This document shows positions 13,374 through 34,343 of a DNA stretch of 64,000 nt, in pieces (positions within the stretch are counted from its first letter, which is position 1; each line of letters begins with the position of its first letter). The translations under genes were made by a program, and so were the position numbers. The stretch spans positions 39,703-103,702 of the forward strand of contig JBAXEI010000002.1 of assembly GCA_037140515.1 (NCBI GenBank), written 5' to 3'. The notes under the pieces were generated by a model. That model was given only the letters and a program-made list of their open reading frames with translations, had not been told where the DNA came from and did not search any database. Source of the stretch: Candidatus Berkelbacteria bacterium (GTDB taxonomy: Bacteria > Patescibacteriota > UBA1384 > XYA2-FULL-43-10 > 1-14-0-10-43-13).

Positions 13374-15917
13374 ATGAAAAAAACTTCAATATTCAAAATT
13401 TTAGCAAAGAGAAAAATCGTTCTATCTAGTGCGATATTTCTCGGCTTGGCGGCTGCTGTCCTTTCGGGCACATTTATCTTCTATCGATATTTTCAGCCAG
13501 TGAAAGCTGCAAATTCTTGTGCAGCTAATGTTTTGACGGTGAATACTGGAGCGACCGCAAAGATCGTAGATAATTTTTTGACTGGCTCAATTACGCCTTG
13601 CGATAACACAAATGTTTCTGGCTATGATATTACAGTTAGCGGTACTGGAGTGAAGCTGATACTGGCTGGATATAATACTTTCAAAAATATTTCAGTTTTG
13701 TCTAATGCTACAATAACCCATGAGGCGCTGTCCTCTCTAGATATTGAAACAGACGGTGCGAGTTTGCTGCCTACTGGCGAGGCCAAAAAAGTTCAAATGG
13801 TTATTTCTGGAACATTAACGCTCGATACCGGTGGCAAAATCTCGGCTGATGGTCTTGGCTATCCTGGCGGCACCGCTACTCACACTGCTGGCTTTGGCTT
13901 TGGCGGCGGTCAGGCTACTCAGGCTGCACTAGCTTCTACTGTTATCTTGGCTTTTGGTCCTGGCGGAGGTGCTTTCGGTGGTGTCGGCGGTAGTGGATTC
14001 TCCAATCCATCTCTGACAGCTGCGACGGGTACGGCTTACCCAAACTACTATGATCCGTATATTTTTCGCGCTGGCTCGGGCTCAGGATACAATGCGGGGC
14101 ATATAAATACTCCGGTTCCTGTTGTCGGTTCAAGCGGTGGAGGAAGGATATATGTTCGGGCTGGTACAATAAACATCAAAAGTGGCACTATTTCAGCAAA
14201 AGGTAGCACAGGGCTTGCGCAGATACGAAAATATACTCTAAATGTTGTGAACAGATATTCTTTTACGGGGGGTGGCGCCGGAGGCACAATCTGGCTAGTC
14301 GCTGATACTATTGTTGCGCCAAAAGGGGCCACAGGAGTCACGCCCGATGTGTCTGGCGGTGCTATCGGAGGTGACTATCAGATCACAACAACAAATAGTG
14401 CAGATGATAAAGTTATTGCATCGGCTATTCATGACGGAACAAACGGTGTGAGTGAAATATTTGTGGATAGCCAGGAGAAATCGGATTTATACAAAAATTA
14501 TTTTGGTTATTTAAGTACTGCTGGTGGTTTGCCATCGTCAGCAACAGCAACATTGACAGGTTCTCTGAAAGGCACAGCAGCTGGCGGCGGTGGGGGTGGT
14601 AGGATCCGTGTAGAGGCAAAAGTTGTTCGTCCGTCTTGTACTATTATCTCCGGAACTACTATTCCTGACTATTGTGAAAACGGAGATGTGGTCGTTGGCA
14701 ATGGTCTCACAATCAATATGGATGCCGTAACAGTTTTGCAAGATTCCACACGCACTCTGTGTACTGATCCGACTATTTCAAACTGCGATAGTGCTAGACA
14801 TTTTAACAGCCTTACGCTTCAGGGGAACGCGAAGCTTACCCATAATCCAATTACTTCTGGCGATCTATTAGTTGGCGGTACACCTTATACCACACTTCAA
14901 GGTGACTCATTGATAAAAGGTGCCGCTCGTTGGCGAAAAGTAGACATCACAGTTGATGACTATATAAGTCTGGCAACCGGTAGCTCGATAGACGTGAGTG
15001 AAAAAGGCTATACCGGCTCTAACAATACATCGGCTGCACTTGGACGAGCCGCAGGAGCGACAAATACCAATCAGGGCGGTGGCTATGCCGGAAAAGGCGC
15101 GGGGAATTCTCTGGTTAGTTATCCACCGGATTTCCAGACAAAGGTGATCAGTGGTAATTTTGATTATACGTCGACTTATTTAGATAGCGGCAAAACCTAT
15201 CCACTATTTGACGCTGGTTCTGGGGCTGGAACTGCAAGTGCTGGAGGCGGTGGTAGGATTCACTTAAATGCAAAGAGCTTGACACTTGCTCCAGGGTCTT
15301 CGATCTCGGCAAATGGTACTGGCGTGGCAGCAAGTATGGCAGCTGGTGCTGGCGGCATGATTTGGATAGATTCTCAGAGCTATAGCTTTCCATCTGATCT
15401 TCCTGAGGCAGTTGTCACTGGTGGAACTGGCGCAAATGTTGGAGAAAACGGCTATATCTATACAGATATCTTCACACCAAATCTTATTTCAGCAAATGGC
15501 GGCAGCACGACAAACGGATTCAACGGTGGCGGTGGACGAATAATAATTCATCAGACTGTTGCGACTCAGAATCAGCCAATCATTACGAAGAGTGTGAAAG
15601 TTGTTGAACGACCAGGGATGACAGGTACAGCGGTGACAGACCTAAATCCTTATGCTCTTATCCTTGACGATGTGATTGAAGTGACTATTGCGGTTACAGG
15701 TCTGACACCAGGCACACCAAACACTACTATTGATGAAAATGTTTTGGCCGCGCCGACTGGCCAATATTGTTCGCCAATTTCTGCTACCGCTGCAACTCCG
15801 GCGAGTCCAAGTACAGCTCCTACAATCTCGACAGGCATAAAGCTTTTGACTTGGACATTTACGCCAACAAACACAAGCTCGTCTATGACATATAAATGCA
15901 GGGTGGTGAAGTCATGA
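13374..15917 (+). CDS. Secreted/membrane-anchored Gly-rich repeat protein, tandem paralog B of 10717..13371.
   Basis: N-terminal TM. Motifs collinear with paralog A: ITHEALSSLD, ADGLGYPGG, CTDPTISNCDSARHFNSLTLQGNAKLTHN, ARWRKVDIT and the GGGRI repeats. Lies 2 nt after paralog A. Confidence 0.75.
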   Translation: MKKTSIFKILAKRKIVLSSAIFLGLAAAVLSGTFIFYRYFQPVKAANSCAANVLTVNTGATAKIVDNFLTGSITPCDNTNVSGYDITVSGTGVKLILAGYNTFKNISVLSNATITHEALSSLDIETDGASLLPTGEAKKVQMVISGTLTLDTGGKISADGLGYPGGTATHTAGFGFGGGQATQAALASTVILAFGPGGGAFGGVGGSGFSNPSLTAATGTAYPNYYDPYIFRAGSGSGYNAGHINTPVPVVGSSGGGRIYVRAGTINIKSGTISAKGSTGLAQIRKYTLNVVNRYSFTGGGAGGTIWLVADTIVAPKGATGVTPDVSGGAIGGDYQITTTNSADDKVIASAIHDGTNGVSEIFVDSQEKSDLYKNYFGYLSTAGGLPSSATATLTGSLKGTAAGGGGGGRIRVEAKVVRPSCTIISGTTIPDYCENGDVVVGNGLTINMDAVTVLQDSTRTLCTDPTISNCDSARHFNSLTLQGNAKLTHNPITSGDLLVGGTPYTTLQGDSLIKGAARWRKVDITVDDYISLATGSSIDVSEKGYTGSNNTSAALGRAAGATNTNQGGGYAGKGAGNSLVSYPPDFQTKVISGNFDYTSTYLDSGKTYPLFDAGSGAGTASAGGGGRIHLNAKSLTLAPGSSISANGTGVAASMAAGAGGMIWIDSQSYSFPSDLPEAVVTGGTGANVGENGYIYTDIFTPNLISANGGSTTNGFNGGGGRIIIHQTVATQNQPIITKSVKVVERPGMTGTAVTDLNPYALILDDVIEVTIAVTGLTPGTPNTTIDENVLAAPTGQYCSPISATAATPASPSTAPTISTGIKLLTWTFTPTNTSSSMTYKCRVVKS

Positions 15918-16846
15918 AACTTTTCAAGCTAACATTTTTATTAGTTTTACTTACAGTAGTCTTGCAGCCTGGTATTATTCGAGCTGCAAACAATTCTTTA
16001 CCAGATGTTATGTTTGGCAGTACGAAGCTGACCCAAAACGGAAAAAATTATTTTGGCGGAGTGACAGGCAACTACGCAGTTCTAAACAATTCCTCATCTC
16101 CAGATTTTGGTTTTCGCAATGATCAGAAGTGTGTGAAAAGCGATGGTACGCTGGTGATTCAGTCGATCACGTCGCCAAAATGCTTTGTCCTGACTAGTTC
16201 AAACTCAGCTGTAAACTTGCTTACGAGTCGCTCCTTTATTCGTATCGGTACTAACGACGAGCAGGCGATTTATGAGTTGCCGGCGCTATATTTTAGCAAG
16301 AGCACTATCGCTGGCGATGTATTTGGCAATATTGATTATAGTAAATTTTCTTTCTGGGGAAATAACACTTCTACTTCTGGTGATTCAGCTTGGACGACCA
16401 GTGGCTATGCGATGAATCCAAAATCACAATCTTCATGGCTAGACTCTAGCGGCAGCGGGACGACGGCGTACAACAGCTACTATGCCAAGATCAGGGCGAT
16501 GGCAGACAACGGGAAAGTTTTTTCGCCTGCTGATACTACATATTTAAACTCGAGCACTGACATTCATATTTATTTGCAGAGCAAAGACATTGCTAGTAGT
16601 TCTTCGGCAAATGACGAAACGAATCTTTATCCTGAAGGAAAGACGTGGATTGTTGATGCTACTTCTTATAACCCTACTACTAATGGTGATCTGAGCATTA
16701 GTAATACTTCTGGCAAAAGAAAAATTACATATCATGGCATTGGAACTATACTCGTAAAAGGAAACGTAGACGTTGCGGCAAACGTAGAAATCATGCCTGC
16801 AACTGATAAGGACAAGCTAGGAATTATCTCTATCGCAGGTGACTAA
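15914..16846 (+). CDS. Secreted protein of unknown function with an N-terminal signal peptide.
   Basis: MKLFKLTFLLVLLTVVLQPGIIRAANN looks like a cleavable signal peptide. S/T/N-rich. Overlaps the end of paralog B. The ORF track starts at 15896. Confidence 0.6.
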   Translation: MKLFKLTFLLVLLTVVLQPGIIRAANNSLPDVMFGSTKLTQNGKNYFGGVTGNYAVLNNSSSPDFGFRNDQKCVKSDGTLVIQSITSPKCFVLTSSNSAVNLLTSRSFIRIGTNDEQAIYELPALYFSKSTIAGDVFGNIDYSKFSFWGNNTSTSGDSAWTTSGYAMNPKSQSSWLDSSGSGTTAYNSYYAKIRAMADNGKVFSPADTTYLNSSTDIHIYLQSKDIASSSSANDETNLYPEGKTWIVDATSYNPTTNGDLSISNTSGKRKITYHGIGTILVKGNVDVAANVEIMPATDKDKLGIISIAGD

Positions 16847-16933
16847 TTAGTGCCTCGTCTGAAATCGATTTTTTGACTAAATACAAGTGCCAAAATTTCT
16901 TCTCTGAGACACAATATTATTGTGGAAAAGTAT

Positions 16934-16963
16934 TTGGTATTCTCGCATAAATTGGTCTATAAT
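16934..16963 (+). promoter_or_regulatory. Candidate promoter for the giant gene.
   Basis: TTGGTA, 18-nt spacer, TATAAT. A GGGGAGGG RBS sits at about 17000, ahead of the ATG at 17013. Confidence 0.3.
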
Positions 16964-17012: not shown

Positions 17013-20000
17013 ATGCGAAAATTTAGCCCCATGAAAAGTCTCCAACAAATGCTTGGAGATATATCTAGTCGTACAAATGCGGCTCATTTTTTGCGCTCAA
17101 ATATCCACGAGAAAAAGCTAAATGGTGGAGTTAGCTTTCAAAAAGTTGTCTTAGTCACATTTGTTCTTGCAGCAGCTCTAATCTGCGGATTTTTGTACAA
17201 TAATCAACCACAAAAAGCGTATGCTGCAAATTGTCGGTGGACCGGTTCGGTAGGGAACGCAGACTGGATGACTGCGGGAAACTGGACAAGTTGCGCTAGT
17301 TTGGTTCCTCAATCAGGTGATTCAATAACCTTCGACTCTAGCGGTACACAGGTCGTAAATCTTAACAGCTCTACTTCTATTGCGAATTTGACCATCGCAA
17401 ATACATTTGCAGGCACTATCACAGTTGGCGGAGGCTATACTTTGACAGTGTCTACAAACTATCGTCAATATGCAGGAACTTTCAATGCTCCGGCTGCTGG
17501 GTCAATAAGGGTTGGCAACCAGTTTATGAATGACCAAGGCGTGTTTAACGCTAGTACCAGTCTTGTAGATCTCTATAATGTTACAAACGCAGGTTCTGCT
17601 GGTTTCTGGGGTAATACTACTTTTTACGACCTAAGCATCACGTCACCAACAGCAACCCCAGTTTTGTTCGAGCAGACTAGGACTCAAACAGTTCTTCATA
17701 ACTTTGTTGCGAAAGGTACTTCAAGCCAAAATCTTATTTTGACCAGAAATGCAGGCTCAAATTGGATCCTTGACCTAAAAGGAACGTATTCTATGGAATA
17801 CGTCTCAGTCAGCTATTCCACAAGCTTGAGAGCAGGATATCTAAATCCACCAAACTCTTTCAACGGACCTAGCAATACAGGCTGGTTTCCGCCGATCAAT
17901 GTATCTGGCTCATGCAGCTCGACTTCAGCTGAGACAGTTTATCTTGTTGTTAACGGCACTTTAAATACCCAATTTGCAACGACTGCTGGTGGTGCACCAT
18001 GCACATACACAATTTCTGGGGTATATAGACCAAATAAGGGAGATGTTATCCAGACTTTTGTGAACAAGATTGGCGCATCGGATCCGACTGATGCACAAAA
18101 AGCAGTTGCAGTTATGAAATACAATACGGCCGGCAATGATGTGACGGGCTTGGACTTGAGAGAAAAGACACTATCTATCGGTACTCTTGATTCACAGGTG
18201 GTTACATACTCAGACCTCAAAATGTACGACTATGTCAATACGACTACTCGTAAGAACATTCTATATGATTGCACTGACGCTTATGGACCTAATAATTTTT
18301 TCAATCTCATGTCCAAAGCCTCTGGTTACTCGCAACAGCTGACAGTCTATATCCCAAATGGTGGCACTTATTCGGGACAGACTAGCGGCTACCGGGTAGT
18401 CACGGAAACTGATTATCTTCAGATTGCCACTGGTGGGACGTACCTAGGCGCCAATGACTCGACGATGGATCTGAAAGCTACTGGCACGCCATTTACCAAA
18501 AGTGGTACTTTTGACCCAGGTACATCTAACTTCATCTACTCTGCTGCCGTTACAGTGACAGCAGCTACTTACTATGATCTTACACTTCTTGGTACTGGCT
18601 CAGACACTGTTCTCGCTGCCGGGACGTTGACTGCTCTGCGTAATTTCACTATCGGAAATGGTACAGCAACGACTGTCGTTCGAGCAAATACGAATAATCC
18701 GATAATCAATATTGGCGATTCGCTTGCTCGACCAACATTTCTGATTAGTAATGCTAGTACCTTCTACGCCTCACCCTCTGCTGTGATGAATGTTTACGGT
18801 AGCTTCACAGCGCACGGAACCTTTACGCACAACAACGGCACAGTAAATATTTTCTTGTCGACTGGCGATCACGGCCATATCACGGCTGATAATGCTCCTG
18901 TTTCGAAATTTTATAACCTAAACATTACTCGTGGAGCGACCGCTACTGTAGCTTACAAGATTTATTTTGATACTAACTTTACTGTCGATGGCAATCTTAC
19001 GATGAGAAACGATACAGATGTCAGACTTTATATTGAGAGCAAAACAGCTTCTATCGGCACTATCTCAGTGACAGGTGATATCATTTTCCCAGCAACACCA
19101 GCGAACACTGGTGGTATCTCTATCGGGGATAATATTTCTAGAGATTCTAATGGTAATCCTATATACGCTTCTTGGCCTTCAATTGATTTCAAAGGCAATT
19201 TCCGTCAATTGGATACAGATGTAAACCCAGGAGGATCAAGTATAGTGATCGCTGGTTATTTGACTGCATCGGGTTCCACCAATCAGCACTTTGAGCGTGC
19301 TCGGAGCACTTACAATGCTGGCACCGCATACCAACCGAGCTTTCTTTCTGGTGATCTGTCTTCGGTAACCTGGAAGATAAATAAACCCGTTGCAGGCACA
19401 TTTGTCATTCCGGACTCTGACTTTGTCTTCGATAATGTGGTGTGTGACGCAAACTATGATGCAGAGTTTCAGAAAAATGGTACAAACACTATTGCCTTGA
19501 ATAATTTTAATTACGGAAGTGATTGCAACTTTACCCAACCAAATGACGCAGACATGTTCTTGCTTTTTGGCAATTTCACTATGAATGCGGCTGGCAAAAC
19601 TTTCTCCATCAACCCTACTTTCAAGACACAATTTGGCTATCTGCTAAGCAAGTTTTTCTATGTTTCGGACTTTGTGAATGACGAAACTTGGTCAAAGGGT
19701 GACGTTGTCATAAACAATGGTACTCTTACTTTTCCGACAGCTTACGCTACTAAGATGCGCAGCCTGACTATGAATGCTGGAAATTTCAACGCTCCAGGAG
19801 GTACGGGAGAACTGATAATGTACTCGAACTTTACAATTGGTGCTGGCGCAACTTTCCATAATAATTTGGGTAAAGTTAAATTTTTGACTGACTATATTGG
19901 CAGCTACATTACTGTGGCCAACTCTGCGGCGAGCACGTTCTACACTCTAGACTTTGGCAGAACACTGACAACCAAAAGAATTGATTATACAGGTAACTGG

Positions 20001-23000
20001 GCTGGCGGCATAGAAATAAGGAGTGCCCTAGTCGTTGATAGCAACTTTCAAATATACAATAGCAGTGAAAGCCCACTAAACATTTCTAAGATTAATTCAG
20101 CCGACGCTCTCCCTGTGACAATAAATGGCAACTTCACACTTCTTCATACGGATGAGACGGGTGCAATAGGAATTGGCAATTCTAATGTACCAGCTACTTT
20201 TCCAACGTTTGATTTGAATAGAGATTTTTCATACGAAGAAAATACCGACACAGCAGGGGACGCGAAAGTCTATCTTTGTATGAAGTTCATCGTTTCTGGT
20301 ACTGTCGATCAGCATTTTACACGACTTAGAACTTTATATCCTTATGGGGTTACTCCTGACTATTTGGCCGGATATTTTGTTAACGTAACTTGGCAATTTA
20401 GAATGGGCGCTGGCGCCCATGTCATCGCCGATACAGACTTCATATTCAACGGCGTGGTTTGCGATGCCAATTATCGTGCAGAATTTTTGAAAAAAAATAG
20501 CAATAAGATTGCTCTGACAAATTTTCAGTATAACAACGGTTGTAACTTTATTCAGCCACTCGACGCAGTCGATAGCTTCCTTTGGTTCGGCGATTTCACG
20601 ATGAACGCTAATTCGACTTTCACAATCAATCCGCTGTTTAAGACCCAGTTTGGATTTATGCGTAGTAAATTCGGGATCAGTTTTGTGGGTAACCAAACTT
20701 ATCCTGAGCGTTGGTCGGGAGACAGTCTGCCATATTACTTCGACACAGGCACAAACGGTAATATTACTGTAAATAATGGCACTCTGGAGTTTCCGACTGG
20801 CTATGTAACAACGGCTGGTGGCGTGACGATAAACGGGGGAGTGCTGAAGGCTCCTGGAGGTGCAGGAAACCTGAGCGTCCACTACAATTTCGTACAGACT
20901 GGCGGTAGCTTTGTTCACCAAAATGGTTTGGTTACTTTGCTTGCTGATTATGCGAACAATACAGTATCTTCGATCAATAATTTATTGACGTTTTACAAGC
21001 TAGATATTACGAAGTATCTTGGCGATACATTCAGTATCTTACTAAAAAGTAATATTCAGACCGATAGCGATCTGACTTTTGGCAACAGGATGACGAGTTT
21101 AATTAACTATCCTCTAAATCACCTAATTTTTCGTAGTGAATCAAGCCTCAATCCTACAGTTACCGTAAAAGGAAATTTCATACTTCCTGACTACGGGAAT
21201 AGAAATTGTTCTACTTTTGGTGCAACAACATATCCAAATCAACTCAATGTCGATTTGTGGGGCGACCTGTCAGCGCCAGCGACGAACGCAGTTGTACTAG
21301 ACGCGAACTTCCACTTTGTGGGTGATCGTGAGCAGCAAATTGATGTAAACGCTCACCTGGAGAACGATGATACTTGGAAGGGTGTTTGGCTAAGCAATGG
21401 TAAATGGGAAATAAATAAGAGCTCTGCGTCCGGAAAAGTATCTCTAGCAAAAAACTTTATTGCGTCTAGCGTACATGGCATTATTGATAATAATAACGGT
21501 CACCCTCTGTATATGGATGTTAAGAAGGGTGTTCTTGACATGAACGGTAAGAATTTCGTTTTGCTCGGCCGGACAAATGATTTCATAGACGGTAGCGGCG
21601 GATTTGCAAACTTGGTTGATGTTACGCTTTCGGCGCAGGATGCAGGGACAATCAGGCTCCTGGGGACCGAACAAACCCCTAGGTTTGTTGTCCTCTCTAG
21701 ATTCTCAACTGTTGAATACTATGATCAGAATGCAAATGGTAGAGAGATAAAGAAATGGAACTATGGGAATCTCAAGATAAACGCGGTAAACGGCGTGACA
21801 AAGGGAAAGTACTCTTTGCCAGCCTCTCTCGTGGGCTATTGGAAGATGGATGAAAGTAGTTGGTCGGGCATAGGAAGTGTTAAAGATTCGACAATTCTGG
21901 CCAATAACGGAACCGCAGCCAATGGTGCCGCGCCGGTGACGGGCAAATATGGGAATTCCGGTAGTTTCAATTATAGTATGAATAGTCTGGTAGACGCTGG
22001 CTCGATACCAAATGTTGATTTGACAAATGAAGTGACTGTATCAACGTGGGTAAACTTTGACAGCTTTCCCTGTGACCAAGCCCAGGGCTTTTTCTCAAAG
22101 GATCATGATCTGACGCTATATGCTACTTGCAGGAGCTATAATGCAGTCACTAATTTCCCACCACGTTATAGTTTCGTGTTCTCGACACCTGGCGGTCTAG
22201 TTGGTTCACAGTTTGCTGCGCCAGTGACCGGTAATTGGTATCATGTTGTCGGTGTATATAAGCAATATGAATACATGAAGATATACGTAAACGGGGTTCT
22301 CTCTAGCACTACGCCTATTACAACCAAACGGTCTGAAACAGCTAGTAATTTTCGGATTGGTAGAGGCTACAGTGAGCGAGTCGATTGTGTTGGCTTCGGA
22401 AGTGCTAGTTGCGATAGCTGGAATAATGTAGATACTCTTAGTGGACGACTTGATGAGGCAAGGCTTTATTCTGTTGCTCTGACTGATCAGCAAATTGCTA
22501 ATTTGTATAATAATAATGATGCTGGTCCCTTACCTGGTACTAATATTCAAAACGATGTCTCGATTGTGGCCGGTACCCTTGACGGACAGGGTCGTGAAGC
22601 AAGCGTCGGTGGCAACTGGACCAACCAAGATACTTTCTTGTCGAAGGACGGCAAGGTAACCTTCACGTCTGCAGATAAGACAGACTTCGTGAATTCGATT
22701 GGTACGACTATTCCGGCTATCAAGCTACTTAATAACAACAATCAGCAGTGGGGAAGTGTTGGGTTCGACAGTGGTATTTCTGATGGTGGCCAGTGGAAGT
22801 TTGTGGATACGAACAATCATATAATCCTGCAAAACAATCTATATGTTGCAAATGGCAATGTTGCGACCGATGCAGCCGATCTAGATAATAAGCAGATGAC
22901 GGTCATGGGTGATGTTGTCCTGACTGGTGGCAAGCTGACGGCTCGTGGCTCTGTGATAAATGTCGGGGGTAATTGGTCAAACACGGGCGGCACTGGAGTT

Positions 23001-26000
23001 CTCGCATATGGTACGTCTACGGTGAAGTTTACGAAGGCTGATGGGCCACAAAATATTTCAGGCAACACTACTTTTTATAATCTGACAAAGCAAGTTTCGA
23101 CAGAGCAGCATTGGATATTTGCAAAAGATTCTGTTACTTCCGTCATGGGCAAGTGGACGGCAACTGGTACGCAAAACAATATTTTGTTTGTCGAGAAAGA
23201 CGGCGTTGCAAACAACGGTGATCATTGGAAAATCTGGCTAAATAACGTATCTTCTGGCAAGGATTTGCAGTGGCTTGCGGTACGTGATTCAAACAACATT
23301 TCAGTTCAAGAGATAAATGTTGCAGCTGATAAAGTATATGATCTTGGAAACAATATTCGCTGGATTTTTGGAGGTATTGATATATCCGGATCATGCAACC
23401 TCTATGATGAAGCTGTTACGACTTTTTGTGCTCCTGGCGCGAATATAGTTTCGGTGGCTGTAAATGATGAGATCCAGCCGATGAAAGGCAGTATCGCAGC
23501 TGATGGAACCTGGAGCGTCAGCGGTATCCTTGGTAAAGCGGCGGGTGCGACGATAACTGTTTATCTAGATGGTGTGGCAATAGAGAAACGTGCAAATCTA
23601 GTTGCTGTTTCGAACGCTACTAATATCATCAACGCTAAATTATTCGAAAATCATCTCACTATCGGAGCTGAGGGTAGCGCAATGATCAATAATGGTAATT
23701 TGGCACTGTTTGGCCACTCTATAGCGGCTGATGATGACATAATTTTCGATATAAATGTCTCAAGTAAAAAACTGACTCTTCTAAATACAGGAAAAGTTCT
23801 TCGAGACGAAGTCTTGTATGTTGGGGGGAACAATAGTTCTTTGTATCAGCCGAAATTTGGAACGATGACTGGTGATCTGATCACAGCGCCTAGCGTTCAT
23901 ATCGGGCCAAGTGCAAAGATGGATCTTTCAAATTGTACAGATATTGATGCATGTAAAATAAATGTTGATGGCGGAAACTGGAGAAACGATCTGACTGGTT
24001 CGTTTGCAGCTGGCTCTTCAACTGTCAATTTCTCTGGCACTGCAAATGATCAGGAGATAAAGACAGGTAATGCTGCCTCAAAATTCGATAAATCGGTAAT
24101 CAATGGCACGATTCAGACAAATAGCTGGGTTTCTCCTGACATAAATCCTTATCAATACCAAAAAGAGATTACGATCAACGGGCCATACTCAGCTGGCGGA
24201 AGTCCTAGTGCAACTCTTTCAAATGGCTTGGTCGCTGAGTACAAGATGAATGAAGCCTCTTGGACGACAAATGGCCCAGTTCTAGACTCGACAACAAATG
24301 GTGCAAACGGCATAAATACACGAGCAAATACAACAGATACTGGCAAATTTGGGCGAGGTGGTGATTTCAACGCCACGAATACAAGCTATGTTGCTTTGCC
24401 TGCTGCCGTAACTTCTGGCTTGAATAAGTTTACGATCTCGATGTGGGTAAACGAAACACAAGCTGGACCAGTTAACGATGACAGGACCCTGATTGGCAAT
24501 TTTAGCACCAGTAATGAAGGTTCTCTTCGTGTGACAAGTAGGGGCGGACGATTGGGAATGCTGGCCTCAAAAATGAATTCGAGCTACCTCAATACAGCTA
24601 ATACTTTTGATGGCACAGGCGTCTCCAGCACGGGGACATATAGCATTTCAAATAATAAGTGGAACCATGTTGTTGTGGTTGCTGATGGTATGCAGATATC
24701 TCTATATGCAAACAGTGAAGCTGACGGAAAAATGATACATCTCGGGTCAAGTCCAGCAGACAGAGGATTGACTGCTCTGTCAATGTACTTGGGCGCACAA
24801 AATTATAACAATTCTATTCCAGCAGCTTCTTACTACACCGGAAAAATTGATGATGTTAGGATTTACAATCGAGCACTCTCTGATGCGGAGATTGGGATAT
24901 TGGATCAGGCCTCGGAGGATAATTCTTTCGACGTAAATAAACTTAATCTTGTGGATTACAAGGCAGTTCTCGACGATGGCGAAGTTGCTCGTTACGATTT
25001 TGAAGACCAAGCAAATGTAGGTAAGGATGTTTCGGGAAATAGCAATAATGGAGTACCTACTGGAGATATTACTGCTTTTGGCAAATTTGGAAATGGTTTG
25101 AAGTTCACCGCAGATGGTCAGAATTTAAGCTTGGGCAAACCATCGATACCTGGCCCTGGAAGCGAATTTTCGGTTAGTACCTGGTTTTACCAAAGCGCAT
25201 ATGCCTTCAGCTCTCAATATCTTGTATCTCAGACCGACTCAGCTGGTTCGGGCTTCTCGATCTTTACCGGTGTCGCTGATACCTCGGGCAATTACGATGA
25301 CATTCTTGTTGGTGACGCTACAAATGATGCAACGGTATGGAAGGTCCCTGTCCTCTTCTCGGTCGGATCTGGCGCCTGGCACCATGTTGTAGTTGTCTCA
25401 AAGAAAAATGGAGCAGATCTATACTTCGACGGCATCTTGAAAGCCTCCAAGACTTCAGCTCTCTCATATGGAAATAACTCAGATAGCCTGGTCCTTGGCA
25501 AGAAAAATTTGACTGTATCTGGTGGTGACCTCAAGGGTGGGCTTGATGAATTCAGAATATATGATCGCTTGCTCACTTCGAGCGACGTTTCAACCTTGCA
25601 CACTAGCAACACAACTTCTGACTGGGCAAATTTCTATACACATGCATTAGAAACTGGACAAGATATTATATTTACTGCGAGTGACAAGACTACTCTCTTA
25701 CCATTTTACCGTGATAAATTCACAGCAAGTGGCCAAAATTCTCGCTTTGTTGTGAAAGTCCCGAGTGTCCCTGCAAATAGCTCAACGAATATCTATGCGT
25801 ACTATGGTAACACACACTCAGACAGGAGCGATGCAAGTTTGATCACTTCTGCTCTTCCTGCACCAAAAGGTGCATGGTCGCTTGATGAGGGAGTCGGAAC
25901 TACAGCAAAAGATGCTACCGCGAATGCTAATAATTGTTCTGTTGTTGCTCCGCCTGACTCTTGGACCGGTAGCGGCAAATCTGGCGCTGCGCTGGTTGGC

Positions 26001-29000
26001 GGAAACACAACGTTGAATTGGAACACGTGGAATTATGCCTTGTGCGGAAATGGGGCATCAATAAATTCAATTTCTGGTGCGATTACTCTTGAAGCCTGGG
26101 TAAACATGGCTTTTCCTGTGTCCCAAAATGTTAGTGGTAGCATCTTGTACAGAGAAAATTCTTACGATCTTGGTATCAGCTCTACATATACTGATTCTAT
26201 TAATATAGACAGGTACAAATTTAGTCTTTATACGAGCAGTGGATGGAAAACAATTTATTCCGACTTCACAGCTACGCCTGGAAAGTGGCAGCACGTTGTG
26301 GCGACTTGGGACAATGGTAGCAAAATCATGAAATTGTATGTCGACGGTGTTTTACGAGCTTCTGGGAGTGAGTATGTTGCCAATTCGCTAGCTGCTTCAT
26401 CGAGTGTCTTTAGTATCGGCGTTGGCCTCTATCAGAATTACGATAGGCTTCAAGGTCAAATTGATGATGCTAGAGTGTATAATGTTGCTCTCGATCCTGC
26501 ACAAATAGCATTGGACGCAATAAGTAAGCCTTTCTACTCACTCAACTCTGTGGCACCAGTCGCTACAAATACCGCGTACGCTCCAAGTATCTTGTTCAGT
26601 GATACTGAAGCCACTTGGCAAGCAGAATCAAACGGTACATGGATAACCTCTGATGATTTCCACGCAAATACACTCACACTTGGTGATGGAGGTCTAAATG
26701 CAGGTGTGGGCGATGTCCATATCTACAGTGATTTCTCTCAGGTGCAAGGAACTAAAACAAGTAAGTTTACTGCTCCTGGTGCAAACAAAACTATGTATGT
26801 TGGCGGAAACTTTACCCACACTAGCGGGCAATTTATAACAAATGGTGGAACGCTTGCCTTCAATTCAAAGGCTTCGGATGTCAAAAATATTAAGCTAAAT
26901 GGCATCTCTCCAGATAATTTGGCTTTTGATAGTGAAACAACAAACAGAGGACAATGGAAGTTTGCTGATACCGACACTGCGGTAGCCGTCGCAAACGATT
27001 TCACACTTGGTAAAACAGTAACTACCACGGCTGGCCTAGGCTCTGCGCCAATTACTACAAGATACATTTGGTATCCAGATGGTGCTCAGGGGATGATCAA
27101 GCAGGATACGGTAACAGGTATTAAGACATCCGTACCTGTACTACCTGGCGGGGGACTCTTCAACGTACATGGTAGTAGTGTCGACAAAGATGGAAACGCT
27201 TGGTTATCTTTTGACAACTATCCAGTCACAGGCTGGAACGGTTATCAGTCGATTAGAATTGATGCTGTGACAAATCAAATTACGAAATATCCTTCAGGCG
27301 GAGGGCCCATCGTAGTTGACTCTGCGGGCAATATTTGGATGTCGCAAGCTAGCTCGACAAATTATCTAATCAAATATAACTCTGCTGGTACTGAAGTCTG
27401 CCGAGGAACTACTAGCTATCATGCAAATGCAATGGCCGCAGATAGCAACGGAAATATTTGGGTGGCGGGAAATAATCAATATGGTATGGACGAGCTGCTC
27501 AAATTTGATCAGAGCTGTACTCAAAAAGTCATTGGTGACTCCTCGTCCCAACCTCTTGGTATCGCAGTCGATAGCGATAACAATGTCTGGGTTACTAGCA
27601 GTCTCGAGGGGGTTGTCAGAAAGATCAATGGCAACACTGGCGCCACAATGGCAATTGTTAGCACTGAGAATGGATATCCTGTTGGTGTTGCTATAGACGC
27701 GAATAATGATGTTTGGGTTGCAAACGATTCTAGCTATGGCACTGTAGTCAAGATAAGCCATACGACAAATACGGTGGTCAAAACTGTTGATGTCAGCGCT
27801 GGTCCATATGGTATTTCAATTTCAGGCGACGGAAAAGTTTGGACAACCCATTTGGGCTCAAATAATACAACCAAGATTGATCCAGTCACAGATACTGTTA
27901 CAAATTACCCTGCCTCCGGTGCTGTATTCACAGTCGGTGACATGACTGGTTTTGCATTGCAAAAATTTGTCTTGAAGAATGATACGCAAGTAGCTCTCGG
28001 GCTGGATCTTCAGGGAAAAACACTGACAACAAAAAATGTTAAAATTATCGACACGGGAAGAATTACAGTAAGTGAGCCTTCTTCGGTAATCGTTTCAGGC
28101 GACTGGCAAAATAATGCAGATGCCGAGACATTTAAGGACGCCACCGGATCCGCGAAGCCTTTATGGGTCGCAAATTTTAATGGCACTTCACAGCGCATTC
28201 TTGGAAATACAGTCTTTTCAACGCTGAAGTCTACAAACTTTACTGCTACTTTCAGAGAGATTGCTTTCGGTGCTGGCACCACAACAGAAGTTACTAAATA
28301 TTTGGATATTGAGGGCAAGAGCTCTTCGGCTAGATCTATCACTCTCAAGTCAACTGCTACTGGGAACAAGTGGAACATCAAGGTCTCTTCAATTTTGACG
28401 CCGAATCATCTAGTAGACTCTGTCAACCTATATGATTCGAATAATACAAATTCTGTTTATCTCTGCGCCTCGAATTCTAATGGTTCAACCACGGATAATA
28501 TTCGTTGGAATATTACTGCTATTTCTTCTGCACCGGGCGTTTGCGGACTGCCAATTTCGATCGTCATTTCTGGCAAAGATCGTGTGAAGGTAGGCGAAAC
28601 ATTCAGCCTTGACTGGGCTGTGGAAGAGGCCGATTCATGTGATTTCACCAGTAATCCCGTGAATGCTAGCTGGAATACTGCTAGAACAATTCCTCCGGCT
28701 GATGTTCACGATTGGACAGGTTCTGTCCCATTAGCTATCAGCAATACAACAACTTTCACTATGACATGCAAAAATTCAAGTAATCCTGGCGGTGTTGTTA
28801 AGACTAAGACGGTCTCGATAAATGGTGGAATTTGTACCTTCAACGATAACAATACTGTGAACGCGATGCTCTTCTGCGAGAATGCATTTAACTTAAAAGG
28901 CGACAATTCTACCTTTAACGGCGCTGTCAGCTCACAGAATATGTCTATCGACGGGGCAACGCAAAACAACAGATTCAACTATGAATATGATACAGACGGA

Positions 29001-29066
29001 AACGCACCTCCAGGATTTCGTTATTTGAATATTCCTAGACCAAGCGAGGTGGGCAACAAGCAGTAA
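17013..29066 (+). CDS. Giant (4017 aa) surface protein. It has a signal-anchor TM, an N/T/G-rich beta-rich region with internal tandem repeats, four LamG/concanavalin-A-like lectin modules, an NHL-like beta-propeller and a Cys-containing C-terminal domain. Putative adhesin.
   Basis: Single uninterrupted 12,054-nt ORF. TM at VVLVTFVLAAALICGF. Four modules each with W..HVV...Y..(L/V)Y.(D/N)G and (L/I)D(E/D)xR(I/L/V)Y, with repeated antisense ORFs only. NHL-like blades GNAWLSF, GNIWMSQ, GNIWVAGN, NNVWVTSS, NDVWVAND and GKVWTTH. Confidence 0.9.
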   Translation: MRKFSPMKSLQQMLGDISSRTNAAHFLRSNIHEKKLNGGVSFQKVVLVTFVLAAALICGFLYNNQPQKAYAANCRWTGSVGNADWMTAGNWTSCASLVPQSGDSITFDSSGTQVVNLNSSTSIANLTIANTFAGTITVGGGYTLTVSTNYRQYAGTFNAPAAGSIRVGNQFMNDQGVFNASTSLVDLYNVTNAGSAGFWGNTTFYDLSITSPTATPVLFEQTRTQTVLHNFVAKGTSSQNLILTRNAGSNWILDLKGTYSMEYVSVSYSTSLRAGYLNPPNSFNGPSNTGWFPPINVSGSCSSTSAETVYLVVNGTLNTQFATTAGGAPCTYTISGVYRPNKGDVIQTFVNKIGASDPTDAQKAVAVMKYNTAGNDVTGLDLREKTLSIGTLDSQVVTYSDLKMYDYVNTTTRKNILYDCTDAYGPNNFFNLMSKASGYSQQLTVYIPNGGTYSGQTSGYRVVTETDYLQIATGGTYLGANDSTMDLKATGTPFTKSGTFDPGTSNFIYSAAVTVTAATYYDLTLLGTGSDTVLAAGTLTALRNFTIGNGTATTVVRANTNNPIINIGDSLARPTFLISNASTFYASPSAVMNVYGSFTAHGTFTHNNGTVNIFLSTGDHGHITADNAPVSKFYNLNITRGATATVAYKIYFDTNFTVDGNLTMRNDTDVRLYIESKTASIGTISVTGDIIFPATPANTGGISIGDNISRDSNGNPIYASWPSIDFKGNFRQLDTDVNPGGSSIVIAGYLTASGSTNQHFERARSTYNAGTAYQPSFLSGDLSSVTWKINKPVAGTFVIPDSDFVFDNVVCDANYDAEFQKNGTNTIALNNFNYGSDCNFTQPNDADMFLLFGNFTMNAAGKTFSINPTFKTQFGYLLSKFFYVSDFVNDETWSKGDVVINNGTLTFPTAYATKMRSLTMNAGNFNAPGGTGELIMYSNFTIGAGATFHNNLGKVKFLTDYIGSYITVANSAASTFYTLDFGRTLTTKRIDYTGNWAGGIEIRSALVVDSNFQIYNSSESPLNISKINSADALPVTINGNFTLLHTDETGAIGIGNSNVPATFPTFDLNRDFSYEENTDTAGDAKVYLCMKFIVSGTVDQHFTRLRTLYPYGVTPDYLAGYFVNVTWQFRMGAGAHVIADTDFIFNGVVCDANYRAEFLKKNSNKIALTNFQYNNGCNFIQPLDAVDSFLWFGDFTMNANSTFTINPLFKTQFGFMRSKFGISFVGNQTYPERWSGDSLPYYFDTGTNGNITVNNGTLEFPTGYVTTAGGVTINGGVLKAPGGAGNLSVHYNFVQTGGSFVHQNGLVTLLADYANNTVSSINNLLTFYKLDITKYLGDTFSILLKSNIQTDSDLTFGNRMTSLINYPLNHLIFRSESSLNPTVTVKGNFILPDYGNRNCSTFGATTYPNQLNVDLWGDLSAPATNAVVLDANFHFVGDREQQIDVNAHLENDDTWKGVWLSNGKWEINKSSASGKVSLAKNFIASSVHGIIDNNNGHPLYMDVKKGVLDMNGKNFVLLGRTNDFIDGSGGFANLVDVTLSAQDAGTIRLLGTEQTPRFVVLSRFSTVEYYDQNANGREIKKWNYGNLKINAVNGVTKGKYSLPASLVGYWKMDESSWSGIGSVKDSTILANNGTAANGAAPVTGKYGNSGSFNYSMNSLVDAGSIPNVDLTNEVTVSTWVNFDSFPCDQAQGFFSKDHDLTLYATCRSYNAVTNFPPRYSFVFSTPGGLVGSQFAAPVTGNWYHVVGVYKQYEYMKIYVNGVLSSTTPITTKRSETASNFRIGRGYSERVDCVGFGSASCDSWNNVDTLSGRLDEARLYSVALTDQQIANLYNNNDAGPLPGTNIQNDVSIVAGTLDGQGREASVGGNWTNQDTFLSKDGKVTFTSADKTDFVNSIGTTIPAIKLLNNNNQQWGSVGFDSGISDGGQWKFVDTNNHIILQNNLYVANGNVATDAADLDNKQMTVMGDVVLTGGKLTARGSVINVGGNWSNTGGTGVLAYGTSTVKFTKADGPQNISGNTTFYNLTKQVSTEQHWIFAKDSVTSVMGKWTATGTQNNILFVEKDGVANNGDHWKIWLNNVSSGKDLQWLAVRDSNNISVQEINVAADKVYDLGNNIRWIFGGIDISGSCNLYDEAVTTFCAPGANIVSVAVNDEIQPMKGSIAADGTWSVSGILGKAAGATITVYLDGVAIEKRANLVAVSNATNIINAKLFENHLTIGAEGSAMINNGNLALFGHSIAADDDIIFDINVSSKKLTLLNTGKVLRDEVLYVGGNNSSLYQPKFGTMTGDLITAPSVHIGPSAKMDLSNCTDIDACKINVDGGNWRNDLTGSFAAGSSTVNFSGTANDQEIKTGNAASKFDKSVINGTIQTNSWVSPDINPYQYQKEITINGPYSAGGSPSATLSNGLVAEYKMNEASWTTNGPVLDSTTNGANGINTRANTTDTGKFGRGGDFNATNTSYVALPAAVTSGLNKFTISMWVNETQAGPVNDDRTLIGNFSTSNEGSLRVTSRGGRLGMLASKMNSSYLNTANTFDGTGVSSTGTYSISNNKWNHVVVVADGMQISLYANSEADGKMIHLGSSPADRGLTALSMYLGAQNYNNSIPAASYYTGKIDDVRIYNRALSDAEIGILDQASEDNSFDVNKLNLVDYKAVLDDGEVARYDFEDQANVGKDVSGNSNNGVPTGDITAFGKFGNGLKFTADGQNLSLGKPSIPGPGSEFSVSTWFYQSAYAFSSQYLVSQTDSAGSGFSIFTGVADTSGNYDDILVGDATNDATVWKVPVLFSVGSGAWHHVVVVSKKNGADLYFDGILKASKTSALSYGNNSDSLVLGKKNLTVSGGDLKGGLDEFRIYDRLLTSSDVSTLHTSNTTSDWANFYTHALETGQDIIFTASDKTTLLPFYRDKFTASGQNSRFVVKVPSVPANSSTNIYAYYGNTHSDRSDASLITSALPAPKGAWSLDEGVGTTAKDATANANNCSVVAPPDSWTGSGKSGAALVGGNTTLNWNTWNYALCGNGASINSISGAITLEAWVNMAFPVSQNVSGSILYRENSYDLGISSTYTDSINIDRYKFSLYTSSGWKTIYSDFTATPGKWQHVVATWDNGSKIMKLYVDGVLRASGSEYVANSLAASSSVFSIGVGLYQNYDRLQGQIDDARVYNVALDPAQIALDAISKPFYSLNSVAPVATNTAYAPSILFSDTEATWQAESNGTWITSDDFHANTLTLGDGGLNAGVGDVHIYSDFSQVQGTKTSKFTAPGANKTMYVGGNFTHTSGQFITNGGTLAFNSKASDVKNIKLNGISPDNLAFDSETTNRGQWKFADTDTAVAVANDFTLGKTVTTTAGLGSAPITTRYIWYPDGAQGMIKQDTVTGIKTSVPVLPGGGLFNVHGSSVDKDGNAWLSFDNYPVTGWNGYQSIRIDAVTNQITKYPSGGGPIVVDSAGNIWMSQASSTNYLIKYNSAGTEVCRGTTSYHANAMAADSNGNIWVAGNNQYGMDELLKFDQSCTQKVIGDSSSQPLGIAVDSDNNVWVTSSLEGVVRKINGNTGATMAIVSTENGYPVGVAIDANNDVWVANDSSYGTVVKISHTTNTVVKTVDVSAGPYGISISGDGKVWTTHLGSNNTTKIDPVTDTVTNYPASGAVFTVGDMTGFALQKFVLKNDTQVALGLDLQGKTLTTKNVKIIDTGRITVSEPSSVIVSGDWQNNADAETFKDATGSAKPLWVANFNGTSQRILGNTVFSTLKSTNFTATFREIAFGAGTTTEVTKYLDIEGKSSSARSITLKSTATGNKWNIKVSSILTPNHLVDSVNLYDSNNTNSVYLCASNSNGSTTDNIRWNITAISSAPGVCGLPISIVISGKDRVKVGETFSLDWAVEEADSCDFTSNPVNASWNTARTIPPADVHDWTGSVPLAISNTTTFTMTCKNSSNPGGVVKTKTVSINGGICTFNDNNTVNAMLFCENAFNLKGDNSTFNGAVSSQNMSIDGATQNNRFNYEYDTDGNAPPGFRYLNIPRPSEVGNKQ

Positions 29067-29141
29067 AATCAAATTGGCTATTGTTTAAAGAATAGTAATA
29101 TTATAAAATGTAGTAAGTAATAATGCGCACTAGGAGGGACA

Positions 29142-30336: not shown

Positions 30337-30347
30337 AGGAGAAAGCT

Positions 30348-30620
30348 ATGAAGACAAAATTAGATCCTAAAATTTTATCGCTTATCGGCGGCATCGCGGC
30401 CGTAGTCCTAGTGATTGGCGCATTTTTGTACATGTGGCAAAACGGTAAACCTGTAGCAGGGGAAAAAATAATCACAGATGTAAAATACAAGACTGTCGAA
30501 ATCGGTACGACTATTGCCGACGCCCAGATTATGATGAACAAATTATCGTCAAAAGCCACGCTACCAGTGACAGCACCGACAGCAGATAAAATTGGCAAAG
30601 ACAATCCATTTACTCCATAA
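30348..30620 (+). CDS. Small single-TM protein, possibly a PilP-like pilus accessory component.
   Basis: 90 aa with TM ILSLIGGIAAVVLVIGAFLYMW. Sits between the PilO-like gene and pilB. Confidence 0.35.
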   Translation: MKTKLDPKILSLIGGIAAVVLVIGAFLYMWQNGKPVAGEKIITDVKYKTVEIGTTIADAQIMMNKLSSKATLPVTAPTADKIGKDNPFTP

Positions 30621-34320: not shown

Positions 34321-34343
34321 TATCAATTAATCACACCCAATAA

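Follow-up and report, generated by a model that had tools for sequence, protein, structure and literature searches.

A giant adhesin-like surface protein encoded directly upstream of the type IV pilus operon of Candidatus Berkelbacteria shares a conserved C-terminal tail with unrelated proteins

Results

Gene organization of the locus

The window, that is, the whole stretch of 64,000 nucleotides of Candidatus Berkelbacteria DNA that was analyzed, carries a 12-kb reading frame between genes for Gly-rich exported proteins and a type IV pilus operon, with the following features:

10717 to 13371, plus strand: 884-aa exported, Gly-rich, beta-helix-like surface protein with one N-terminal hydrophobic segment and no Pfam match
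13374 to 15917, plus strand: 847-aa Gly-rich surface protein, paralogue of the 884-aa protein; its orthologue is 51% identical
15896 to 16846, plus strand: 316-aa secreted protein with a signal peptide, a beta-solenoid that lacks the tail and is proposed to dock the tail of the giant protein
16910 to 16924, no strand assigned: perfect palindrome CACAATATTATTGTG, candidate operator, upstream of the giant gene and identical in the orthologous intergenic region of the related locus L081
16934 to 16963, plus strand: promoter-like TTGGTA-18-TATAAT, the best match in a 20-kb scan (10/12), kept in L081
17013 to 29066, plus strand: giant ORF of 4017 aa, a single ATG-started reading frame translated without internal stop
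29078 to 29141, plus strand: element upstream of pilN, promoter-like TTGT.T / TATA[AG]AAT plus a ribosome-binding site, conserved in the window and in the related loci L081, L089, and L085
29142 to 29822, plus strand: pilN-like gene for 226 aa, so named solely from its position and its topology (a single TM segment, aa 32-62)
29806 to 30336, plus strand: PilO (PF04350, 26.2 bits against a cut-off of 22)
30348 to 30620, plus strand: 90-aa single-TM protein, kept in the operon
30711 to 35546, plus strand: PilB (with MshEN domains), PilT, and PilC (T2SSE 3e-126, T2SSE 1e-53, and T2SSF 2e-58)
35650 to 39707, plus strand: major pilin, prepilin peptidase PilD, and four minor pilins (N_methyl and Peptidase_A24 matches)

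The 884-aa protein is 28-31% identical to the product of the next gene and only 57% identical to its L081 orthologue, while the 847-aa protein gave a weak and partial match to AgmC_N. The pilN-like gene overlaps the PilO gene by 17 nt, and its product matched none of the HMM families searched. Six pilin genes in the window match PF07963 and/or TIGR02532. No Rfam or tRNA features were found.

The description of the giant gene as a single uninterrupted 12-kb ORF, made in the first-pass annotation from the letters alone, was borne out. The 4017 codons contain neither stops nor frameshifts, a GGAGGG ribosome-binding site lies 9 nt 5' of the ATG, and exactly the same protein is encoded on eight independently assembled metagenome contigs and deposited at NCBI as MEI7792050.1 ("DUF2341 domain-containing protein", Candidatus Berkelbacteria), which together exclude a frameshift or assembly artefact. 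Tandem or long direct DNA repeats were sought within the gene and none were found, so there is no hint of phase variation or collapse.

The giant gene ends at 29066 and the pilN-like ATG begins at 29142 on the same strand, which agrees with the 75-bp gap reported earlier. The co-transcription with the pilus genes that had been proposed from this spacing is nevertheless doubtful: the giant gene and pilN are each preceded by a conserved promoter-like element, and in relatives a GIY-YIG gene (L081) or an insertion of ~400 bp (L085) intervenes between the gene in the giant's position and pilN. Besides, the ~60 bp 5' of pilN are alike in four loci even though the content further upstream differs. 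The giant gene is probably transcribed from its own promoter.

Domain architecture of the giant protein

The encoded protein is composed of a long beta-rich stalk, four LamG domains, a propeller, and a terminal Ig-like domain followed by a short tail (all coordinates on the plus strand; P0032 is the orthologue used for comparison):

17013 to 17237, plus strand: conserved N-terminal region (44-aa hydrophilic extension, hydrophobic aa 38-64, and an AYA/AN site after them), sharing 69% identity with P0032, compared with 49% for the whole protein
17208 to 17897, plus strand: right-handed beta-helix module 1 (aa 66-295)
17898 to 18272, plus strand: inserted all-beta domain (aa 296-420), putatively Ig-like from its strand pattern (AF2 model of low to medium confidence)
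18345 to 18992, plus strand: beta-helix module 2 (aa 445-660; AF2 pLDDT 72-92)
18816 to 21020, plus strand: ~340-aa module in two copies (aa 602-945 and 946-1336; self-BLAST 36-53% identity, E 1e-38 to 1e-43)
21828 to 22529, plus strand: LamG domain 1 (PF13385, E 3.2e-20, 73.2 bits)
22530 to 24212, plus strand: middle stalk (aa 1840-2400), which has sequence motifs of beta-helix and Ig-like type, 54% identical to P0032
24219 to 24899, plus strand: LamG domain 2 (PF13385, E 3.3e-22, 79.7 bits)
24978 to 25598, plus strand: LamG domain 3 (PF13385, E 5.5e-21, 75.7 bits)
25656 to 25823, plus strand: DUF2341 domain (aa 2882-2937; PF10102, 41.3 bits against a cut-off of 23.4)
25857 to 26522, plus strand: LamG domain 4, pentraxin-like (PF13385, E 3.3e-25, 89.4 bits; Pentaxin 25.3 bits)
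27138 to 27947, plus strand: six-blade NHL beta-propeller, PknD-type, with PDB matches to Pizza6 and PknD, 31% identical to P0032
28533 to 28820, plus strand: Cys-containing Ig-like domain, 36% identical to P0032
28821 to 29063, plus strand: C-terminal tail (aa 3937-4017), the last beta-solenoid coils and then the near-invariant peptide DGNAPPGFRYLNIPRPSEVGNKQ

Only one segment, aa 38-64, is strongly hydrophobic, and the rest of the protein has no TM segment. The N-terminal hydrophobic segment read earlier as a signal anchor is thus present, but it may equally be an extended signal peptide. The N-terminus reads GG|VSFQK, with Lys where pilins need Glu5, and the class III signal is missing (no match to N_methyl PF07963 or TIGR02532), which rules out the identification of the giant protein as a pilin.

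The four LamG modules and the six-blade NHL-like propeller (~27.15-27.88 kb) that had been recognized by eye were recovered by the Pfam search, which returned Laminin_G_3 four times as well as NHL. When searched separately, each of the four LamG segments exceeded the PF13385 gathering threshold of 27.6 bits, and the whole protein scored 238.9 bits (E 3e-71). The PF13385 superfamily has no single conserved binding motif; the modules are lectin-type by family, and sugar binding is predicted. The propeller (aa 3433-3637 in the PDB alignments) matched the Pizza6 designs and PknD (1rwi) with E 8e-14 to 2e-10 and NHL PF01436 with 24.7 bits (cut-off 20), extending over ~27.14-27.95 kb. A homologue search with aa 3380-4017, among whose matches the query's own cluster was missing, returned generic NHL propellers only. 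Six cysteines (3818, 3844, 3876, 3919, 3941, and 3955) account for those noted previously in the C-terminal part. The DUF2341 domain, from which the NCBI name of the protein derives, was absent from the first-pass annotation.

The predicted beta-helix-like region was also supported, both by the AF2 model of module 2 and by fold matching, in which adhesins were the best predicted matches of the beta-helix, with tapirins among the top ones. In the AF2 model of the inserted domain, beta-strands extend to about aa 396 and pLDDT falls below 50 past about aa 389; homologues of this domain occur in further large proteins. The duplication of the ~340-aa module, unmentioned previously, appears in self-BLAST as an alignment of aa 602-985 with aa 946-1336, and P0032 carries one copy only. 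The middle stalk had no Pfam match over aa 1840-2400, and resembles aa 200-300 and aa 3236-3330 of the same protein (self-BLAST).

Several other identities were considered. The PilY1/Neisseria_PilC propeller family was absent at E <= 0.1 in Pfam, and neither the TPS secretion domain PF05860 nor the FhaB family was found in the giant protein. Virginiamycin B lyase (PF24684) was rejected as an enzyme assignment at 47.0 bits, below the gathering threshold of 50 (the orthologue P0032 scores 87.6), and the similarity is treated as a common propeller fold. The haloarchaeal Tat-fimbriae protein TafC (NF052521) scored 89.5 bits against a cut-off of 410, a partial match confined to the LamG parts. The giant shows no sequence homology to the cellulose-binding beta-helix at the C-terminus of tapirins. 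No glycoside-hydrolase, polysaccharide-lyase, or peptidase family rose above threshold across the 4017 aa, and SLH, S-layer, and cell-wall-binding families were not detected. Among sorting signals, LPXTG, PEP-CTERM, PGF-CTERM, and T9SS CTD were all missing and the last 160 aa contain no hydrophobic segment; PGF-CTERM-like sorting was discarded because no hydrophobic helix comes after the 'PGF' of the tail.

A conserved tail in the position upstream of pilN

The protein ends in ...PPGFRYLNIPRPSEVGNKQ, and this C-terminal tail is the part best preserved among relatives. It is 75% identical to that of P0032 (88% over the last 17 aa) and 63-65% identical to the tails of P0183 and of a 734-aa protein in locus L089, two proteins that resemble the giant nowhere else. 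Upstream of pilN, relatives carry either a 3673-aa orthologue, the unrelated 734-aa Ig-repeat protein (L089), or a fusion of a 316-like protein with the tail (P0183; L085/86). Whatever the cargo, a tail of ~80 aa ends the pilN-upstream protein in all four loci, which come from one narrow clade represented in a handful of lake and other metagenomes. This comparison shows that the pilN-proximal position goes with the tail and not with the body of the giant, which is exchangeable cargo. The Cys pattern of the giant's Ig domain looks by eye like that of the repeats in the 734-aa protein; BLAST at E<=1e-4 aligned the tail alone.

Synonymous changes at conserved codons amount to 36-44% in the tail and 48-52% in PilT. 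Recent recombination as the source of the tail's sameness was rejected because synonymous sites have diverged about as in PilT; the tail is conserved as protein, by purifying selection of a strength like that acting on PilT. The tail alone matched no profile family, and no viral relatives of it were found. A PHROG search returned no matches.

The P0183 fusion relates the tail to the 316-aa protein encoded next to the giant gene. The alignment of the 316-aa protein with the N-terminal part of P0183 runs to the very end of the 316-aa protein, where P0183 goes straight on into a giant-type tail; the tail-less orthologues in L081 and L089 stop at the same point, so that the 316-like proteins of three loci end exactly where the fusion junction lies. 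The fusion itself represents one lineage, on two N-terminally truncated contigs of ~1.8 kb each. In a medium-confidence monomer model built on a four-sequence alignment, the P0183 tail would extend the 316-like beta-solenoid. DUF7305 (PF23981, gathering threshold 27 bits) matched weakly across the junction of the 316-like part and the tail (E 0.0024-0.058), with sub-threshold scores of 18.2 bits for the L089 composite (E 0.0024), 15.2 for the L081 composite, and 13.7 for P0183; the composite of the window's own 316-aa protein and tail gave no DUF7305 match.

Relatives and rates of change

Full-length relatives of the giant are very rare, with two clusters among 1.84 billion representatives. 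A scan of GTDB genomes with the alignment of the full-length protein, in which GYWKMDE of LamG served as the key motif, returned distant LamG proteins only (22-36% identity) and no orthologue, and metagenome match L090 proved to be a false positive, an aldehyde dehydrogenase. With respect to the conserved synteny with pil genes anticipated earlier, it is kept in the sole full-length orthologue, but the distant LamG-containing proteins, many of them large and all in other genomes, have a pil gene within 10 kb in 4 of 75 loci; adjacency is therefore not a general property of LamG proteins, and it is the tail, not the body, that is bound to the position.

The genes from the ABC transporter through the minor pilins are collinear among relatives, and their products differ widely in conservation. 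Identity reaches 95% for the MFS protein, 93% for DinB, 94% for PilT, 85% for PilB, 83% for PilC, and 85% for PilD, compared with 51-57% for the three upstream surface proteins, 43-49% for the giant, and 38-55% for the pilins (38% for the major pilin). Compared with P0032, the giant differs most in the propeller and the Ig domain and least at its two termini. The giant protein thus evolves fast, as is typical of interaction proteins.

Discussion

Our results suggest that the giant protein is a Sec-exported, very long fibrillar surface adhesin of the Candidatus Berkelbacteria cell, docked through its C-terminal tail and acting alongside the type IV pilus, a reading to which we assign a probability of about 0.55. 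Adhesion or host recognition is the best reading of the beta-helix adhesin fold, the four LamG domains, the propeller, and the fast evolution. The adhesin role that the first-pass annotation had proposed for this exported, multi-domain, lectin-like surface protein is thus retained. The beta-helix stalk, with its inserted Ig-like domains, would project the LamG and propeller modules off the cell, where glycans or other structures on the surface of a host bacterium or a particle may be their targets. The propeller and the terminal Ig domain could be the specificity determinants, since they are the fastest-diverging parts. In attachment, the giant would work next to the pilus and not as a subunit of its filament.

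A closer bond with the pilus has to be weighed, namely that the tail-bearing proteins are non-pilin adhesins of the pilus tip or shaft, like PilY1/PilC or tapirins, with the tail meeting the minor-pilin complex with or without the 316-aa protein. The fixed place of the tail gene directly upstream of pilN in four loci with any cargo, the PilT-like conservation of the tail peptide, the C-terminal beta-propeller that recalls PilY1 and the PilX2 of TM7x (PMC11623550), and the tapirins, which are beta-helix adhesins beside a type IV pilus locus (10.1101/359786) and top fold matches, all speak for such an arrangement, yet we consider it unlikely. The prepilin signal and a PilY1/PilC family match are both absent, the pilins diverge (38-55%) while the tail is near-invariant, which is odd for an interface between the two, and the minor pilin genes lie 8-10 kb downstream instead of adjoining. 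Moreover, the tail gene and pilN can be separated by insertions, and a cargo of 4017 aa must cross the envelope independently of the pilus.

Less probable again is a surface-tethered polysaccharide-degrading or predatory enzyme, in which the beta-helix (pectate-lyase or tailspike-like), the LamG modules (glucanase-like), and the Vgb-lyase-like propeller would digest host wall or extracellular polysaccharides. Omnitrophota giant proteins beside T2SS/T4P-like loci have been proposed to digest prey walls (10.1101/2023.11.21.568195), and PF13385 belongs to the 'concanavalin A-like lectin/glucanases' superfamily. However, the 47 bits of Vgb_lyase remain under its 50-bit cut-off and non-catalytic PknD-type sensor propellers match better, all glycoside-hydrolase, polysaccharide-lyase, and peptidase families were below threshold, and the best fold matches are adhesins. 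The least probable alternative, an S-layer-like or fibrillar coat formed by the giant and its three Gly-rich neighbours, with the tail as a cell-wall retention module and the pilus adjacency accidental, could draw on the four consecutive exported beta-rich proteins, on a collinearity that makes adjacency alone weak evidence, and on the rarity of pil genes beside distant LamG proteins, but coat proteins are not usually swapped at one locus for unrelated proteins of 734 to 4017 aa, SLH, S-layer, and cell-wall-binding families went undetected, and the domain set is typical of adhesins.

Within the preferred reading of a docked surface adhesin, the way in which the tail might dock can be sketched from the fusion. 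By Rosetta-stone logic, the giant's tail may supply the final coils missing from the truncated 316-aa beta-solenoid, and completing it would dock the giant to the 316-aa protein as an adaptor, while the near-invariant terminal peptide could bind a conserved partner in the envelope or the pilus machinery. We tentatively put forward a previously undescribed plug-in adhesin system as a possible, though not the expected, outcome: the ~80-aa tail would attach interchangeable cargoes, from a 734-aa Ig-repeat protein to a 4017-aa fibre, to the tail-less adaptor through fold complementation, the complex would be tied to the envelope or to the type IV pilus machinery by the invariant peptide, and cargo swaps at one pilN-upstream slot could change host specificity. 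If the tail is indeed a general docking device, this would explain the exchange of very different adhesins at one pilus-side position.

To our knowledge, Berkelbacteria have no cultured representative, and host recognition by uncultivated CPR/Patescibacteria is largely unexplained outside a few Saccharibacteria, in which type IV pili and lectin-like minor pilins have been implicated. The locus offers a concrete candidate for a host-recognition fibre in Berkelbacteria, whose fast-evolving parts can be named (propeller and Ig domain), and its short, strongly conserved C-terminal module with a partner protein makes the attachment or sorting mechanism directly testable.

Several known systems resemble parts of this picture. 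The propeller of PilY1 has seven blades, compared with six NHL blades in the giant, whose gene lies upstream of pilN and not among the minor pilins; like the PilY1/PilC tip adhesins, the giant is a large non-pilin with a C-terminal beta-propeller, encoded in a pilus gene cluster and, as proposed here, adhesive. The PilC of Streptococcus sanguinis carries a lectin module. In another genome (L076), pilins with LamG modules start with GFTLIELLVV, end in the LamG signature, and adjoin pil operons; the giant shares with such modular lectin pilins the LamG-type modules for adhesion in a type IV pilus system, but it has no class III signal and carries its LamG domains in a chain of 4017 aa that is not a pilin. 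Modular pilins have been described as a class for S. sanguinis PilB (PMC8179133). In Saccharibacteria TM7x, binding to the host is mediated by minor pilins that are lectin-like (PMC11623550); there, the L-type lectin-like PilX1 and the beta-propeller PilX2 of Nanosynbacter lyticus link both folds to type IV pili in a CPR episymbiont and are likewise proposed to bind host glycans (PMC11623550; PMC12206443). Unlike the giant, which has no prepilin signal, they are small pilins with (non-)canonical prepilin signals that are built into the filament, and the giant is about 10-20 times larger and holds both fold types in one chain.

The tapirins of Caldicellulosiruptor (10.1101/359786; PDB 6n2c, 6n2b, and 4wa0) are also non-pilin beta-helix surface adhesins, from a monoderm bacterium, but they are ~600-aa cellulose binders that lack LamG domains, a propeller, and the shared tail, and no sequence similarity to the giant was detected. 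The Omnitrophota giants likewise belong to ultrasmall bacteria with huge surface proteins beside type IV filament machinery, and their attachment and carbohydrate domains were recognized only by structure prediction (10.1101/2023.11.21.568195), a further likeness; they come from another phylum with another domain set, are 10-20 times larger, and have many TM segments, SecA-like helicase domains, and antiparallel beta-helices.

The closest known relatives in kind are the giant Patescibacteria proteins with FhaB and/or DUF2341 domains, already a noted class (PMC11809585). They share with the Berkelbacteria protein the phylum, a length above 4000 aa, DUF2341, a beta-helix stalk, a lack of full-length homologues, apparently reshuffled domains, and a role in adhesion or host interaction deduced for both. 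The Berkelbacteria protein differs in having no FhaB/TPS match, in its order of four LamG domains, DUF2341, NHL propeller, Ig domain, and tail, in its fixed position upstream of pilN, and in a tail common to unrelated cargo proteins. The earlier statement that proteins of this kind are poorly described or undescribed thus applies to the exact architecture, which is nearly unique, but not to the class (PMC11809585), and the protein is best read as a not yet known variant of the giant adhesin-like proteins of Patescibacteria/CPR. Modules of its N-terminal part are found again, 5-13 times, in other proteins with lengths of 1300-5600 aa, one of which carries a TPS domain and another GLUG motifs.

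Results

Structure and setting of the giant protein

The window is an ordinary stretch of CPR chromosome (tRNA synthetases, TopA, DprA, RecR, NusG, L11, L21, RF), in which the following features are discussed:

10717-13371 and 13374-15917, a pair of exported paralogues of ~850 aa, Gly-rich and beta-helix-like, lying directly upstream
15896..16846 (+), secreted 316-aa protein
16910-16924, perfect 15-bp palindrome CACAATATTATTGTG
16934-16963, promoter-like site TTGGTA-18-TATAAT
17013..29066 (+), giant protein
29142-40802, stretch with the pil operon
41554-45667, orphan prepilin-type gene (204 aa), Memo + PGA_cap fusion (588 aa) and a 571-aa protein for which no family match was found, in that order
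59811-62072, putative surface proteins with collagen-triple-helix repeats (304 aa) and DUF11/DUF7619 (395 aa)

The first-pass annotation had described a single uninterrupted 12-kb ORF, and this was confirmed, as the sole long ORF of the interval encodes 4017 residues in a stop-free translation and has a GGAGGG 9 nt 5' of its ATG. Frameshift, chimera and repeat collapse can be excluded, since the identical protein occurs on eight independently assembled ENA and JGI metagenome contigs, is on record as MEI7792050.1 ("DUF2341 domain-containing protein", Candidatus Berkelbacteria MAG, 413.6-kb contig), and a search for tandem or long direct DNA repeats in the gene returned none.

The protein has a single strong hydrophobic segment (aa 38-64), beyond which no further convincing TM segment was found, and its N-terminal segment may be cleaved. 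A Pfam scan of aa 1-1600 gave zero matches; an exhaustive HMMER scan with aa 1-1200 showed its ~200-aa modules recurring, 2-13 per protein, in many proteins 1300-5600 aa long, among them one with a TPS domain and one with GLUG motifs, and aa 602-985 and 946-1336 form a diverged internal duplication. The four LamG modules recognized earlier lie at the positions given for them and each exceed the PF13385 threshold separately, and DUF2341 lies between LamG3 and LamG4. The predicted NHL-like region proved to be a six-blade propeller of the PknD sensor type (aa ~3376-3645), on which the Vgb-lyase model stayed under its cut-off. At the C-terminus come another beta-helix-type module (assigned by sequence motifs alone), an Ig-like domain containing the anticipated Cys, and an 80-aa tail, of which the window holds one copy.

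Relatives and rates of divergence

Among 1.84 billion cluster representatives, the N-terminal architecture was found in only two clusters, namely the giant's own, which the exhaustive HMMER search recovered, and that of P0032, a 3673-aa orthologue with 49% identity and the same domain order, in which the duplicated module occurs only once. L081, the locus of P0032, is collinear with the window from the ABC transporter through the minor pilins, and its orthologues fall into two classes, conserved (MFS 95%, DinB 93%, PilT 94%, PilB 85%, PilC 83%, PilD 85% identity) versus divergent (43-49% for the giant, 51-57% for the three exported proteins encoded upstream of it, 38% for the major pilin and 55% for one minor pilin). 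By these identities, the giant is one of a fast-evolving, surface-exposed set. Within the protein, identity is lowest in the propeller, at 31%, and in the Ig domain, at 36%; it is highest at the two ends, with 69% over the first 75 aa and 75% over the final 77 aa, of which the last 17 reach 88%.

The two ~850-aa Gly-rich proteins are also fast-evolving (51-57% identity to orthologues), and a family search with them gave nothing except a weak partial match to AgmC_N (gliding motility).

A conserved tail upstream of pilN

A profile of the giant's C-terminal region retrieved P0183 (contigs L085/L086), the N-terminal part of which aligns to the 316-aa protein, including its last residue (44% identity, E 2e-43), and passes without a break into the tail of the giant (63% identity, E 3e-29, with the final 23 aa identical). 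Next after this fused ORF comes the pilN-like gene, the intervening giant gene being absent. The 316-like proteins of the window, L081 and a further locus, L089, all end in ...KLGI(I/M)(S/A)I.., which is the exact fusion junction.

L089, another relative (PilT 95%, DinB 89% identity), recovered by a metagenome scan with the tail, has an orthologue of the 316-aa protein that comprises 309 aa and lacks the tail, followed upstream of pilN by a 734-aa protein whose tail is 65% identical to the giant's, with nothing else in common. This protein carries a cleavable signal peptide, Cys-containing Ig-like repeats and an InlB-B-repeat-like domain. It is selection on the protein, and not recent DNA exchange, that conserves the tail: synonymous differences affect 36-44% of its conserved codons vs 48-52% in PilT. 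A search for viral relatives of the tail found none.

Two other features of L089 were observed. A single 976-aa version replaces the two Gly-rich proteins, and a 233-aa single-TM protein (7351-8052; DUF5667, 27.6 bits) lies between the 316-like and 734-aa genes, overlapping both, with no counterpart in the window.

Transcription and the pil operon

Across 20 kb, no sequence matched the sigma-70 pattern better than the promoter-like site, which lies ~50 nt 5' of the start codon of the giant and is kept in L081; the adjacent palindrome is kept as well and is identical there. Words resembling the palindrome (TATTGT / AATATTAT) also occur upstream of pilN (29078-29110), so that a common operator is possible.

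Co-transcription with the pilus machinery had been suggested, and no terminator-like hairpin was found in the 75-bp gap in front of pilN. However, four loci share a conserved stretch of ~60 bp upstream of pilN, with a TTGT.T / TATA[AG]AAT motif, regardless of what lies before it. In L081, pilN is separated from the orthologue of the giant by a 96-aa GIY-YIG gene (21128-21418) that has GC-rich, hairpin-like inverted repeats on either side and resembles a small mobile element; in L085, a ~400-bp non-coding, GC-rich, repeat-like insert (750-1157) separates pilN from the fused 316-like::tail gene, and the last ~60 bp 5' of pilN are still conserved. Because of this promoter-like element and these insertions, obligatory co-transcription is unlikely; co-regulation is possible.

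The pilN-like gene was assigned by topology and overlap with pilO alone, without HMM support. PilM homologues were looked for in the operon and beside it, and none was detected; pilO is followed by a conserved gene for a 90-aa single-TM protein.

Discussion

In Patescibacteria, giant proteins that have FhaB-like and/or DUF2341 domains and lack full-length homologues are presumed to act in adhesion (PMC11809585), and giant proteins adjoin T2SS/T4P-like loci in Omnitrophota (10.1101/2023.11.21.568195). Saccharibacteria bind hosts via lectin-like and propeller minor pilins (PMC11623550), and tapirins, which are adhesins built on a beta-helix, have their genes beside type IV pilus loci (10.1101/359786). 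Given these precedents, the giant belongs to an already known kind of protein; the earlier view of it as poorly described or undescribed holds for the architecture, confined to two clusters, but not for comparable giants. What is new at this locus is the tail common to unrelated cargo at a fixed position, together with a solenoid either split from or fused with the 316-aa protein. The adhesin itself will not surprise a specialist, but through the tail the way in which adhesins are attached in uncultivated CPR bacteria becomes testable.

We favour, with a probability of about 0.55, an exported fibrillar adhesin in which a beta-helix stalk would present the LamG and propeller modules to host or particle glycans, and the tail would serve for attachment or assembly. 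Read as a Rosetta stone, the fusion suggests that this tail may complete the solenoid of the 316-aa neighbour and thereby dock the protein.

That the giant is instead borne on the pilus, as a tip or shaft adhesin, is unlikely. A tethered polysaccharide-degrading enzyme is more doubtful still, and a structural coat protein is the least probable reading.

Co-localisation with pilus genes is kept in L081. Only 4/75 GTDB-genome loci with distant LamG-containing proteins have pil genes within 10 kb. One of these four, L076, carries LamG modules on bona fide pilins starting GFTLIELLVV, a known "modular pilin" solution that the giant does not follow.

Several known identities were rejected for the giant. 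It is not a pilin (class III signal absent; GG|VSFQK, with Lys at +5; no N_methyl or TIGR02532 match), a TafC equivalog (89.5 bits vs a cut-off of 410) or PilY1/PilC, and it falls outside TPS/FhaB because the TPS domain is absent. Known C-terminal sorting signals were sought in it and none was found.

In L076 (8510-15938), the MAG label of which ("uncultured Gammaproteobacteria") may be wrong, PilB and PilT are ~50% identical to those of the window, and several GFTLIELLVV pilins lie downstream of a PilB-PilT-PilC-PilD cluster, at least one of them, a modular LamG pilin, ending in a LamG signature, ...DDARIYNRALSAGEVGLLYNSG.
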